Shown: positions 48,927 through 53,490 of the stretch, in pieces
Layout: every line of letters begins with the position of its first letter
Position numbering within the stretch: the first letter of the stretch is position 1
From: Candidatus Eiseniibacteriota bacterium
GTDB taxonomy: Bacteria > Eisenbacteria > RBG-16-71-46 > CAZAMP01
DNA: 64,000 nt
NCBI GenBank assembly: GCA_965224245.1
Contig: OZ245046.1
Coordinates: forward strand, 2,528,001-2,592,000
Reading direction: 5' to 3'
Made by a program: the position numbers and the translations under genes
The notes under the pieces: generated by a model
Database searches by the model: none
What the model saw: only the letters and a program-made list of their open reading frames with translations
What the model was told of the DNA's origin: nothing

Positions 48927-50165
48927 ATGCTGGCCAGATGGACACTTGCACTGATCGGACTGGTCGCGCTGACCAGCCCCGCGCTCGCGGCCTGGAACGG
49001 GACACACGAGACTCGCGACGGCGTGCGTCACGCCATCAACGGCGAGGACCCGATGACCACCACGCGGGTCCCGCTCGAGCCGCTGTGGAGGGTCGGGGGG
49101 CTCGACGACGAGGAGGTACTGTTCGGCGTCATCAGCCAGCTCGTGCACGACGACGACGGGAACCTGTACGTCCTCGACCGCCAGCTGTCCGAGATCCAGA
49201 TCTTCTCCCCGGCGGGGGAGTACCTGACCACGATCGGCCGCGCCGGTGAGGGCCCCGGCGAGTTCCAGAACCCGGCCGACATGTACCTGGGCCCCGGCCG
49301 GACGCTCGGCGTCGTGCAGATCTTCCCGGGCAAGGTCGTGCAGATCGGCCTCGACGGCGAGCCCCGCGGCAACTTCACGCTCCCGGCCGCGGGCAGCTTC
49401 CAGCTCGTGATGGCCGGACGCGCCAACGACGAGCGGATCACGCTGGCCGGCACGCTGATGCGCAACGAGGCGGGCCAGGGATTCGAGGATCGCTACCTGA
49501 AGGCATTCGCACCCGATGGCACCGAGCTGGCCACCTTCTACGAGGAGTCGGTCGATGCGCCGTTCGGGGGCCGCAAGTTCGACGAGAAGACGTTCACGAG
49601 CTTCCAGCAGCGCTGGGCGATGGCGTCCGACGGGCGCGTGGCGGCCGCCCCGTCGTTCGACGACTACACGATCCACGTCTGGAATCCCGACGGGAGCCCA
49701 TCGGTCATCATCCAACGCCCGGAGCACGAGCTCGCCGCCCGCACCGACGGTCAGATCGAGCGCTTCCAGAAGCTCTACGACGGGATCACGAGATGGAGCC
49801 CGCAGTCCACGTTCCACGTGAGCGAGACCCACGAGGCCGTCGACCGGATGACGTTTCGCGCCGACGGCTCACTGTGGGTGCTCTCGAGCCGCGGCTCCTG
49901 GACGCCGCCCGACGGCGTGATGGCGGTGTTCGACGTCTACGACCGCGACGGCCGGTTCGTGAAGCAGGTCGAGTTCGCCGGCGAGGGCGATCCCACCGAG
50001 GACTACTTCTTCTTCGCCGGCGATCGACTCTACATGGTGACCGACTTCTTCAGCTCGATCATGACGAGCTTCGCGGACGGTGACACCGAGGCCGAGGACA
50101 CCGAGCCGGAGCCGATCTCGCTGATCGCATTCGACCTGTCGGGGGTCGACGTCGGCATCAACTAG
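48927..50165 (+). CDS. Secreted 6-bladed beta-propeller protein
   Basis: Signal peptide, GNLYVLDRQ, IGRAGEGPGEF, FDVYDRDGRF; RBS gaggag. Confidence 0.82.
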   Translation: MLARWTLALIGLVALTSPALAAWNGTHETRDGVRHAINGEDPMTTTRVPLEPLWRVGGLDDEEVLFGVISQLVHDDDGNLYVLDRQLSEIQIFSPAGEYLTTIGRAGEGPGEFQNPADMYLGPGRTLGVVQIFPGKVVQIGLDGEPRGNFTLPAAGSFQLVMAGRANDERITLAGTLMRNEAGQGFEDRYLKAFAPDGTELATFYEESVDAPFGGRKFDEKTFTSFQQRWAMASDGRVAAAPSFDDYTIHVWNPDGSPSVIIQRPEHELAARTDGQIERFQKLYDGITRWSPQSTFHVSETHEAVDRMTFRADGSLWVLSSRGSWTPPDGVMAVFDVYDRDGRFVKQVEFAGEGDPTEDYFFFAGDRLYMVTDFFSSIMTSFADGDTEAEDTEPEPISLIAFDLSGVDVGIN

Positions 50166-50217
50166 CGGCGTCGCTCCGGCGGCGTCGCTCCGGCTGACGG
50201 CGTGGGGTTCCAGTGCC

Positions 50218-50360
50218 GGGTCGACGAGGGTGGGGCGCTCCGTCGCTCCGGCTGACGGCGTGGCCGTGAGATCGGCTGGGGGCATCATTTCGTGTCGGAG
50301 CGGCTTTGCGAGGCACCGGTGTCGCACGAGTCGCGACTCCGGCCCCACCCTCGCCGACCC
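50218..50360. repeat. Stem-loop repeat element, diverged inverted copy
   Basis: 19-bp IR arms (50218-50236 / 50342-50360); core 50244-50305 is the reverse complement of the core of the 52030 and 52289 copies. Confidence 0.85.
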
Positions 50361-50631
50361 TACGTCGGGGGCCCGGGGCCGAGCGGCCATCGCACGGGGT
50401 CGGTCACGCCTGACGCCGGCATCGACCGCGGCGGCCCGGCTCAGCGGGTGACGTCACCACGCATGGCTGCGGCGGACGCACGATGCGCGGTCGTGACCGC
50501 TCAGCGCTGGACACCGTGCGACCCGTGGCCCGCCAGCGGAGCACGTGTACCCGGGGAACGGTATAGAGGAGTCAGCCTCCCGAGTAACCTGTTGGTGGGT
50601 AAGCACACTTGCCAACAGAAGGAGGCTGACG

Positions 50632-51702
50632 GTGCCGAGGCTAGCATATGCGTACACGTGTGGCGTGGATCTTCACCGGGATTCCGCGCAGATTTGCGTG
50701 GTGGATGCCAGAGGTGAGCGTGTTCAGGAACGTCGGTTCACATTCGGTAGTGCGACGACTCGAACGTCGCTGCTGGACTTCATCGTGGGTCTGGGGCGGG
50801 TAGAGGTCGCGGTAGAGTCGGTGGGGATGAACCGGTGGTTCGTGAACGGCCTGGAGGCCCGTGGTCTGGTCGTCGGCCAGGACCTGTTGGTGGTTCATGC
50901 GGCCTTTCTTCGCCTGAGCGAGAGTGGCAAGAAGACGGATCGACGCGATGCCCGCGAGATTGCTCGTCGTCTGCATCTGGGAGATCTCCGCCGGCGGGGG
51001 CGGTCGTACTACGCCACGGAAGCGGAGTGCGACACGCGTCGGCTGCTCCGAACTCGTCGCGAGCTGGTGAAGCAACGCCAGCAGTGCATCAGCACGCTTC
51101 GAGGGATGTTCCGTGCGTATGCGCTGTCGATGCCGCGTGGCACGTTGTGGAGCCAGTCGTCGCTTCAGTGGCTGTCGGAGCACGTGACGCAGCTTCCGAC
51201 GGGGGCCTTCGCCGCTGGCAGCCTGGTGTGTGTGTTGCAACGTACTCAGCAGGAGATCTTGCGACTGGAGACGGAGATCCGTCGTCGGGCGCGTCGCGAT
51301 CGCCGTGCCTCGGATCTCATGCGGGAGGTTCCGCAGGTCGCGGAGCTGACGGCGCTGACGCTGGTGGCGGAGCTCGGAGATCTGTCACGGTTCGACGGTC
51401 CGCGCCAGGCGGCGGCGTATCCGGGGCTGGTGCCGTCGGTGAACGACTCGGGGGACGCACAACGCCATGGTCGGCTGATCAAACCTGGCAATCGTCATCT
51501 CCGGTGGATCCTGGGCCAGGTCGCCGTCCGGTTGCTGGCGAGCAATGCGCGGGTGAAACAGTGGGCGGTCCCCTACCGCAAGCGCATGCCGACAAACCGG
51601 ATCCGAACGGCGCTGGCGCGGCGGCTACTGGTTGGCATCTATCGCAGTCAGCAGCGTGGAGAACGGTTCTCGCTCGAGCGGTGCCTGGGAATGAAGCCCT
51701 AG
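50632..51702 (+). CDS. IS110-family recombinase/transposase
   Basis: DEDD RuvC-like GVDLH / VES / KTDRRDA; C-terminal ELGDLSRF...GLVPSVNDSG...G.L.KPGNRHLR with catalytic Ser; RBS aaggagg. Confidence 0.95.
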   Translation: MPRLAYAYTCGVDLHRDSAQICVVDARGERVQERRFTFGSATTRTSLLDFIVGLGRVEVAVESVGMNRWFVNGLEARGLVVGQDLLVVHAAFLRLSESGKKTDRRDAREIARRLHLGDLRRRGRSYYATEAECDTRRLLRTRRELVKQRQQCISTLRGMFRAYALSMPRGTLWSQSSLQWLSEHVTQLPTGAFAAGSLVCVLQRTQQEILRLETEIRRRARRDRRASDLMREVPQVAELTALTLVAELGDLSRFDGPRQAAAYPGLVPSVNDSGDAQRHGRLIKPGNRHLRWILGQVAVRLLASNARVKQWAVPYRKRMPTNRIRTALARRLLVGIYRSQQRGERFSLERCLGMKP

Positions 51703-51960
51703 CCCGCGGCTGGTGGTGACATGACGATCGAGCTCGTCGGTGCTCGAACGGAGGCGTACTACGGTTTGCACCAAGGCCAGCGATGCCTGAGCCTCAACCC
51801 GCGAATGTCAGGCGCTTCCGACTACCTCTCTGTGCCACGTCATATGACGTGAGCCCGAAAAGGCGTACGGACGAAACCGACACTGGGATCGAGCGCCGGC
51901 ATCCGATCGTATCTGTGGCGTGACACGCGCAGATGAGGAAGCTACGGCCGAAAGGGGCTT
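51703..51960 (+). ncRNA. Putative bridge/seek RNA in the IS right end
   Basis: Long non-coding right end with hairpins (16-bp palindrome 51836-51851; 51911-51934); position expected for IS1111-group guide RNAs. Confidence 0.6.
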
Positions 51961-52029
51961 GACTCCTCTCGGGTGCGCGTCACCACCGCAGAAACCGATG
52001 CGAGCCGAGTGCGCCCCCCCGACGCCCAC

Positions 52030-52194
52030 CGCGTGAGGGAGCGACGGGGGTGGCGTCGCCGGAGCGACTGATGCGACCCCCACGTCCCACGGAGCCGCTC
52101 CGACACGAAATGATGCCCCCAACCGATCTCACGCCCACACCGCCAGCCGGAGCGCAGGCGACACCACCCCCGTCGCTCCCGACACGCGCCCCCG
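52030..52194. repeat. Stem-loop repeat element, copy 1
   Basis: About 30-bp IR arms around a ~95-bp core; nearly identical to 52289-52454. Confidence 0.92.
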
Positions 52195-52288
52195 CCGTCG
52201 GGAACACCCGGGTGCAACACGCCACGAGCACCCCCGCGGCCAATCGGCACCCCCGACGCACCCCCCGGAAAACACTCCCGAGACCCCC

Positions 52289-52500
52289 CGCGTGAGGGAG
52301 CGGCGGGGGTGGTGTCGCCGGAGCGACTGATGCGACCCCCACGTCCCCCCGGAGCCGCTCCGACACGAAATGATGCCCCCAACCGATCTCACGCCCACAC
52401 CGCCAGCCGGAGCGCAGGCGACACCACCCTCGACGCTCCCGACACGCGCCCCCGAGGGACCGCTGGCGACACCACCCCCGACGCTCCCGACACGCGCCCC
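52289..52500. repeat. Stem-loop repeat element, copy 2, plus an extra right arm (52465-52500)
   Basis: Direct repeat of 52030-52194 at ~260-bp spacing. Confidence 0.92.
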
Positions 52501-52530
52501 GGACGAGGGAGCGCCCCAGAAGGAGAGCGC

Positions 52531-53490
52531 TCAGCCCCCGAGACAGCGTCCCATGCGCCGGAACTTCTCACACCGCGAGGCGAGGAGCGCCTCGGGCGCC
52601 TCGCCCTCGAGCTCGGCGAGGCTGGAGGAGATCGCGGCCTTGACGTTGGCCGCCGCCCGATCGGGTGCGCGGTGTGCACCGCCCATCGGCTCGTCGATGA
52701 CCCCGTCGATGACGTCGAGCTCTTCGAGGTCTCGGCTCGTCAGCTTCAGTGCCTCGGCGGCCTCGGGCGCCTTCACACGATCGTGCCAGAGAATGGCCGC
52801 GCAGCCCTCGGGTGAGATGACCGAGTAGATCGCGTACTCCATCATGAACACGCGATCCCCCACGCCGAGAGCGAGCGCGCCGCCCGACCCGCCCTCGCCG
52901 ATGACGACGCACACGATGGGAACCGGGAAGCGTGACATCTCGCGGAGGTTTCGCGCGATGGCTTCCGACTGCCCGCGCTCCTCGGCCCCGATCCCCGGGT
53001 ACGCGCCCGGTGTGTCGATGAACGTGACGATCGGTAGGTGGAATCGGTTGGCCAGCTCCATGATGCGCAGCGCCTTGCGGTAGCCCTCGGGATGCGGCAT
53101 GCCGAAGTTGCGGCGGATGTTCTCGCGCGTGTCCCGGCCCTTCTGATGCCCGATGACGGCGAGTGGCCGTCCGTCGATCCGCGCGAGGCCTCCGACGATG
53201 GACTCGTCGTCGCGGTACGCGCGATCGCCGTGCATCTCGAAGAACCCGTCGAAGACGCGCTCGACGTAATCCAGCGTGTACGGGCGGCGAGGGTGCCGCG
53301 CGAGCTGGACGCGCTGCCATCGCGTCAGGTTCGAGTAGGTCTTGTGGCGGAGCTTGTCGGCCTTGGCCTCGAGCCGGGTGAGCTCGTCGGAGAGCTCGAT
53401 CTTCTCGACGGACGTGAAGTTCTTGAGGTCCTCGATCCGTCGCTCGAGCTCGATGATCTGGCGTTCGAAGTCGAGCCAGGTACTGATCAT
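52531..53490 (-). CDS. accA: Acetyl-CoA carboxylase carboxyltransferase alpha subunit
   Basis: [54 protein letters not shown]. Confidence 0.98.

Follow-up and report, generated by a model that had tools for sequence, protein, structure and literature searches.

The window considered here is a stretch of 64,000 nucleotides (nt) from the 6.9-Mb genome of a Candidatus Eiseniibacteriota bacterium, and between its positions 50556 and 51973 lies a mobile element of 1,418 bp that belongs to the IS110 family of insertion sequences and, judged by its architecture and by a motif of its recombinase, is of the IS1111 type. It consists of a left end of 76 nt (50556–50631), a recombinase (transposase) gene of 356 codons with a GTG start (50632–51702) and a right end of 267 nt that holds the gene of a predicted bridge/seek-type guide RNA, with a conserved, structured core of 158 nt (51729–51886); these and all further features of the element and of its insertion site are given on the forward (+) strand. 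The longer non-coding side is the one downstream of the gene, which is a trait of the IS1111 group. The G+C content of the element is 63.8% versus 69.8% for the window, and a search of the whole genome found its interior in a single copy. A first-pass annotation of the window had recognised an IS1111-type, RNA-guided element whose right end carries the gene of the guide RNA, and this is borne out by the protein domains, by a covariance model of the RNA and by the covariation of its guides, all described below; the coordinates given then for a flanking CGGG pair, the inverted repeats, TTGACT, TATAGA, the short matches ACCCG, TTGCACC and GAACGG and a 9-bp direct repeat all proved correct on re-reading.

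The recombinase gene is undamaged and forms one long frame on the + strand. GTG at 50632 was taken as its start because a Shine-Dalgarno sequence, AGGAGG (50620–50625), is found 6 nt upstream and because homologues of 345–358 residues span residues 1–356. The translation matches the Pfam families PF01548 (E 2.6e-14) and PF02371 (E 6.8e-20) and scores 185 bits with the NCBIfam model NF033542, IS110 family RNA-guided transposase, whose cut-off is 140. In an alignment of 29 sequences the columns of the catalytic residues D13, E62, D103, D106 and S273 are invariant or at least 90% conserved, in agreement with the intact DEDD and Ser motifs reported at first pass. The motif GL-P----S(T)G that characterises the IS1111 group, as it is defined in the part of PMC11187229 dealing with it, is present as GLVPSVNDSG. 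Compared with the named IS1111 members the protein is nevertheless remote: the transposase of IS4321 (gene from plasmid R751) aligns over its full length (329 aa, E 2e-20) yet with 25% identity, and a plasmid collection yielded remote matches only, none above 43% identity and the best full-length one at 27.7%. With IS621, in contrast, the alignment is limited to the C-terminal 120 aa (E 1.7e-6); these two pairwise alignments are the comparisons that bear on a putative place in the IS1111 clade. The same genome carries two distant IS110-family genes (L019, G000:C1:1527865–1528470, and L020, 221616–222014) with 35% and 31% identity, respectively, over part of the span.

Among 8000 scored candidates, 391 proteins were retained at E 1e-20, the best being 69%, 67%, 53% and 52% identical to the recombinase and followed by a large set at 40–50%; a search for the 69% homologue among viral contigs found nothing. 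From metagenome and genome contigs 160 relative loci were taken, of which 104 are near full-length at an identity of at least 39% and 38 pass a strict filter requiring the same subterminal repeat. On the left side, these 38 relatives present the left flank, then GGA[AC]GG[TC]AT, of which the first two letters are the GG next to the flank, and then a left repeat, AGAnGAnGTCAGCC, which precedes the start codon by about 70 nt. On the right side, the stop codon is followed by 200–340 nt that close with a (C)TTGAC-repeat; beyond it come an A-rich extension of 5 nt, GG and the right flank. The extension is attributed to the element, and GG to the core, because four copies in one genome share the right extension though their outer flanks differ and because at a further locus (L084) an uninterrupted copy of the target is found 30 nt from the insertion. 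Four related copies in one Planctomycetota genome (L101, L102, L103 and L139) occupy the identical point of a hairpin that resembles repetitive extragenic palindromes (REP; GTAGG-GG-CGACC...), with more REP copies just downstream of the insertions.

The guide RNA gene was identified with a covariance model (R1) built from the right ends of 35 relatives, the window being left out. It matches the window over its full length at 51729–51886 with 73.9 bits (E 5.2e-20), and in a search of the genome this was its sole match; such a model, built from homologues, was among the checks that the first-pass annotation had called for. In the RNAalifold consensus of the 35 relatives, compensatory changes are seen at 14 of the 20 pairs. 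R1 was further run on 100 of the 109 loci L021–L129, leaving out second copies from genomes already represented (L102, L103, L111 and L113) and cut or partial matches (L124 and L126–L129), and it finds the RNA in 94 of them, each of the six misses having at most 101 nt after the stop codon. A search of Rfam returned no matching family, its single row, at E 7.3, being due to chance. Taken alone, the window RNA has a folding energy of −58.8 kcal/mol (z −2.1). The alignment, the consensus fold and the fold of the window RNA agree on a hairpin at 51775–51793 that separates two guide segments, V1 and V2, in the internal loop predicted to read the target. Just past the stop codon, GGTGGTGAC (51712–51720) is complementary to CGTCACCAC in the right flank (51978–51986); it falls outside the conserved RNA core, without counterpart in the relatives, and the complementarity may be due to chance.

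For 36 relatives with distinct right ends, every column of the RNA was compared with every position of the junctions. V2 (51797–51805) begins in the window with ACCCG, the guide for the left flank in the sense of the top strand, and goes on with C-GAA, predicted to read the first bases of the left end. Its first five columns reproduce the five bases of the left flank that adjoin the element, with an agreement of 0.86–0.97 against 0.29–0.48 expected. The RNA base that follows never matches the first G of the core (0 of 28 distinct pairs); of the three bases after it, one agrees with the second core G in 26 of the 28, and the others agree with the first and second left-end bases in 27 and 20. 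The unmatched column (window 51802) is occupied by a pyrimidine in all 28 distinct relatives, nearly always C, and this conserved core mismatch may be mechanistically meaningful. V1 (51765–51772), which reads UUUGCACC, is the reverse complement of GGTGCAAA and the guide for the right target flank. When V1 of a relative is compared with the reverse complement of the right flank of the same element, a mean of 6.3 of 8 positions agree, versus 4.2 of 8 when guides are paired with flanks of other elements. Six or more positions agree in 29 of 36 relatives versus 141 of 1252 such mismatched pairs, and the match always begins 7–9 nt past the right repeat. The flank matches ACCCG and TTGCACC, too short to be told from coincidence when they were first noticed, correspond to V2 and V1 and go beyond chance because in relatives the corresponding segments of the RNA covary with the flanks; loop sequences and targets do change together, a point on which the RNA-guided reading had been made to depend from the start.

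The third segment, V3 (51859–51863), is AAAGG in the window. In relatives it equals the 5-nt right terminal extension, at 5/5 positions in 19 of 20 distinct relatives and at 4/5 in the remaining one; of 81 loci in which the RNA is followed by 120 nt or more, 74 have a −35-like motif and, directly behind it, the letters of the V3 of the same locus (last 4 of 5 bases), and the remaining seven, read by eye, show the identical pattern of V3 and extension. This covariation, together with the analogy to IS621, suggests that V3 is the guide that reads the donor. The hexamer GAACGG (51746–51751), proposed at first as a match to the donor, could not be retained in that role, as it is located in an AACGG motif that does not covary and that is conserved in most of the 36 aligned relatives regardless of the sequence of their left end. 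A possible guide for the left end (V4), on the 5′ side of the second loop, showed a weak resemblance by eye and nothing above the covariation threshold.

The left end contains in succession a −10-like TATAGA (50562–50567), the left subterminal inverted repeat AGAGGAGTCA (50565–50574) and AGGAGG. Its counterpart in the right end, TGACTCCTCT (51960–51969), matches it perfectly over 10 bp, within the 7–17 bp span of the IS1111 group, and is overlapped by an outward-directed −35-like TTGACT (51959–51964, the combined feature being 51959–51969); a search of the linear element for a sigma-70-like promoter found none. On both sides of the element stands CGGG, an apparent direct repeat at the junctions (50552–50555 and 51970–51973). 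The ends were placed at these two CGGG because the flanks recur uninterrupted at three paralogous sites of the genome, A, B and C. Up to 50553 the left flank is 99% identical to sites A and B, both of which continue without an element. Site C holds both flanks, the homology with it ending near 50555 on the left and starting at 51966–51970 on the right. In it two CCCGGGT sites stand about 75 bp apart; the first is represented in the window by its left side and the second by its right side. By this homology the left half of the insertion site is GTGTACCCGGG (50545–50555), in which the last five bases before the G run, ACCCG (50549–50553), equal V2 and are predicted to be read by the RNA; the right half is CGGGTGCGCG... 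(51970–51986). The first-pass annotation had looked to other copies and empty alleles to fix the ends: the paralogous flanks do place them at CGGG, the element itself being single-copy and no true empty allele having been seen. Among 60 kin genomes searched at E 1e-30 none has a homologue, so that no empty allele came from them. The alternative boundary once offered, a 9-bp direct repeat of CGTCACCAC (50452–50460 and 51978–51986), is part of the repeated flank and is refuted by the left-flank homology, which runs on to 50553.

Both flanks belong to a repeated intergenic element (window 50158–50555 and 51974–52560; G000:C1 near 2,861,000, 3,971,000 and 5,298,000) that is made of tandem units of about 260 bp, each with GGGAACACCCGGGTGCAACAC, and is present at no fewer than four loci. 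To the left of the second CCCGGGT of site C (G000:C1:3971082–3971102), AACTCC resembles the GACTCC that ends the right repeat (window 51962–51979); owing to this likeness the BLAST alignment of the flank extended 4 nt into the element, and the resemblance is probably due to chance. A joint from 50553 to 51986 found in contigs of the sequencing runs is not an empty site, since it equals the paralogous sites A and B, with other letters in between.

By the family rule, the guides of the window spell ACCCG/GGTGCAA(A). The 12-mer ACCCG/GGTGCAA occurs 32 times in the genome versus 1.6 times expected from base composition, and control 12-mers from 31 other distinct guide pairs gave 0–4 matches each, with one GC-rich, coding-like exception at 23. 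One perfect copy, ACCCGGGTGCAA, stands unoccupied at 52206–52217, 233 bp downstream of the element. The element itself sits at a near-match, GTGTACCCGG/GTGCGCG, inside the repeated intergenic element; V2 fits this site at 5/5 positions, and V1 pairs with GGTGCG of the right flank through five bases and one G-U, which makes the site near-cognate. ACCCG/GGTGCAA is more likely to be the cognate target than the sequence reconstructed at first pass, and the palindrome-like character then ascribed to the target motif is supported. A repeat of about 1.9 kb, present at least five times, codes for a protein of 525 aa in which residues 470–508 match an HNH endonuclease domain (E 4.9e-8; for example L183, G000:C1:2349700–2352300, open reading frame 279–1856, + strand); the guide-specified 12-mer falls near residue 467, where this domain begins, so that several of the predicted targets are inside paralogous genes. 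Two tandem arrays of the ACCCGGGTGCAA motif are located at G000:C1:873,588–873,814 and 6,081,494–6,082,577, the second with a period of about 46 nt.

The right tip of the element departs from what its RNA specifies. V3 of the window is the same as that of two relatives (L021 and L057) whose tips are AAAGG, and the DNA past the right repeat of the window is CGGGT, agreeing with its own V3 in register at 1/5 positions versus at least 4/5 in 81/81 relatives. The right CGGG occupies the place of the 5-nt A-rich extension and GG of the relatives: beyond the subterminal repeats the element extends by about 9 nt on the left and by 1–2 nt on the right, versus 5 nt on the right in 81/81 relatives examined. 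The right-flank match starts 4 nt past the repeat versus 7–9 nt in relatives, and the left junction contains one G more than the RNA specifies. Site-specific insertions of the IS110 family have in common with the target a short core and no target-site duplication of the usual transposase kind; with GG as the core shared by the relatives and CGGG on both sides here, the junctions of the element are out of the family register. An assembly slip at the right junction is excluded, because contigs from three runs of one sample, each assembled on its own (matching 50524–52084, 50524–52008 and 50524–51999), agree with it without a single difference. The earlier description of the element as intact with a reconstructable donor is not supported, the 5-nt extension being absent from its tip. 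Joining the ends at one CGGG does give TTGACT and TATAGA with a spacer of 15 nt, as the DNA stands; this rebuilt donor junction is probably not the native one, because the tip is without the extension of its own RNA, and the spacer worked out by hand is 17 nt in the relatives and would be 17 nt here if the ends were those specified by the RNA. The anomalies of tip and junctions, together with a single copy amid many perfect targets, suggest that this copy is not recognised as a donor; it is probably a poor or dead one, whose loss of mobility we infer.

The way in which such an element would move can be proposed by analogy with ISEc11, ISPa11 and ISKpn4 (PMC11187229) and with IS621 (PMC11208160, PMC12288879), as far as the portions of these reports that treat the mechanism describe it. 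The element would leave as a circle, and the joining of its ends would bring the −35 of the right repeat beside the −10 of the left repeat. The junction promoter formed in this way would drive one transcript comprising the recombinase gene and then the RNA of about 158 nt (51729–51886), and the RNA would bind the DEDD/Ser recombinase. One internal loop would read the target, V2 (ACCCG) recognising the left flank and V1 (UUUGCACC) the opposite strand of the right flank; the second loop would read the ends of the element itself, V3 (AAAGG) recognising the 5-nt right extension. Strand exchange would then be carried out at the GG core by the DEDD/Ser recombinase.

Taking all of this together, we hold with reasonable confidence that the window contains a single copy of an IS1111-type, RNA-guided element whose cognate target is ACCCG/GGTGCAA, that this copy is not the clean product of such an insertion and that it is probably a poor or dead donor. 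Several observations weigh against this. V1 agrees with the actual right flank at just 5/8 positions. The 32 sites of the predicted 12-mer are not independent of each other, nine being in the 260-bp repeat, about six in the HNH genes and eight in the two tandem arrays. The putative role of V3 as donor guide is deduced from covariation and from the analogy with IS621. The contigs of four sequencing runs contained neither a circle junction nor a true empty site. Finally, the central 14-mer of the joined flanks, proposed as the sequence before insertion, has no match in the genome, which leaves the "restored palindrome" of the first-pass annotation hypothetical. Three origins of the tip may be considered: a deletion of about 80 bp, an imprecise insertion and a tip specific to the lineage.

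The first of them, which we regard as possible though not probable, is that a clean insertion of the element into the upstream palindrome (GTGTACCCGGGTACAC-like, compare sites A–C) was followed by a later deletion of about 80 bp, which took the right extension and the flank up to the second CCCGGGT; a single event would then account for the loss of the tip as well as for that of the 75 bp or so. This would fit with site C, which has the intervening stretch where the window has the outer sides only, and with the absence of the joined, "short" target from the genome. On the other hand, no microhomology is seen by eye at the presumed breakpoints, the deletion must have ended exactly where a target junction is mimicked, the extra G of the left junction is left unexplained, and V1 fits the present right flank (five contiguous bases and a G-U) better than the right half of the palindrome (five scattered bases). 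A deletion made by the recombinase itself, from the right junction to the second CCCGGGT, was also considered and rejected, since on paper its product would keep the extension.

The present right flank being the one that V1 fits best, and the left flank fitting V2 at 5/5 positions, we also considered a short variant of the target that existed beforehand, produced by slippage between the CCCGGGT repeats; imprecise resolution of an insertion at this near-cognate site would have put both junctions out of register. Both junctions indeed deviate from the RNA: the left one has an additional G, and the right one has CG where AAAGG is specified. We find this explanation doubtful, given that the short variant itself is not observed in the genome and that the portions of the literature cited here offered no precedent for imprecise resolution in this family.

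It is rather unlikely, in our view, that the copy is fully functional as it stands, with an extension of 1–2 bases peculiar to its lineage, the core within CGGG, and a V3 mismatch that is tolerated or a V3 with another role. The undamaged gene and RNA core and the presence of CGGG exactly at both ends speak for this, as does the fact, to be added to those that weigh against our own reading, that the 69% and 67% homologues are known here as protein only and might share the short tip. Yet in 81/81 relatives the extension equals their own V3 at 4/5 positions or better, the two relatives that share V3 AAAGG with the window do have AAAGG tips, the promoter spacer is 15 nt versus 17 nt, and the genome has a single copy of the element although it offers 32 perfect 12-mer sites, including one at a distance of 233 bp.

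A more speculative form of the reading of a damaged donor, to which we give little credit, is that the copy is the scar of a near-cognate RNA-guided insertion finished by the host and not by the recombinase; it would be immobile, and its intact recombinase and RNA could act in trans on the 32 motifs. If true, such trans action could for instance invert or delete DNA between the repeat arrays that carry the motif. Fill-in at a staggered cut in CCCGGG was rejected as a source of the junctions, because it predicts a duplication of CCGG and not of CGGG. That the short RNA–flank matches, each just 5–8 nt in the window, are due to chance and that the protein alone recognises a palindrome is hardly credible, being already contradicted by family-wide covariation at fixed RNA positions and at odds with the enrichment of the predicted 12-mer relative to control guides and, in the sections concerned, with the published experiments on ISEc11, ISPa11 and ISKpn4 (PMC11187229).

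The reading of an RNA-guided IS1111-type element whose right tip misfits its RNA can be set against the known systems. The elements described under the names ISEc11, ISPa11, ISKpn4 and ISPst6, as presented in the relevant portions of PMC11187229 (Siddiquee et al. 2024) and PMC11208160 (Durrant et al. 2024), have in common with the present one a DEDD/Ser recombinase of about 340–356 aa with GLxPxxxxSG, subterminal repeats followed by terminal extensions (here of 1–2 nt on the right), a short left and a long right end, an RNA just after the gene, a promoter split across the junction and a palindromic, REP-like target. In ISEc11, moreover, the segment pairing with the top strand of the target, here V1, is reported 5′ of the one pairing with the bottom strand, here V2, which is the same 5′-to-3′ order. 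What sets this copy apart from the IS1111 elements with seekRNA is that its right extension misfits its own RNA, and that it is known here from its sequence only. With IS621 and ISCro4 (PDB 8WT6 and 9T56; PMC11208160, within the passages describing them) it would share the division into one target loop and one donor loop, the reading of both strands around a 2-nt core by each loop, and "handshake" positions, in that V2 here appears to continue into left-end bases and V3 of some relatives into the right flank. It differs from them in the position of the RNA, which is 3′ and not 5′ of the gene, in its long inverted repeats, in its core, GG and not CT, and in a protein that aligns in its C-terminal 120 aa alone.

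Of the pair IS4321 and IS5075 within the IS1111 group, IS4321 likewise has subterminal repeats and inserts site-specifically into a repeated palindrome, its target being the ends of Tn21-type transposons. The motif targeted here is a different one, of the ACCCGGGTGCAA type. The element is of a kind already known, with a mechanism published in 2024, and it opens no new question; bridge RNAs have been predicted by covariance models in 93% of catalogued IS1111 elements, according to the survey portion of PMC11208160. The description of a new programmable orthologue given at first pass is fair for an added member, and for that only, of a family that is known and very large. Recombinases of the IS110/IS1111 type, together with their bridge (seek) RNAs, are under development as programmable genome-editing tools, and a remote orthologue with a readable code, composed of a left guide of 5 nt, a right guide of 7–8 nt, a donor guide of 5 nt and a GG core, provides one more natural example. 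Moreover, the rule that the RNA spells the 5-nt right extension of its own element gives a simple computational way to locate the true right ends of such elements and to spot damaged copies.

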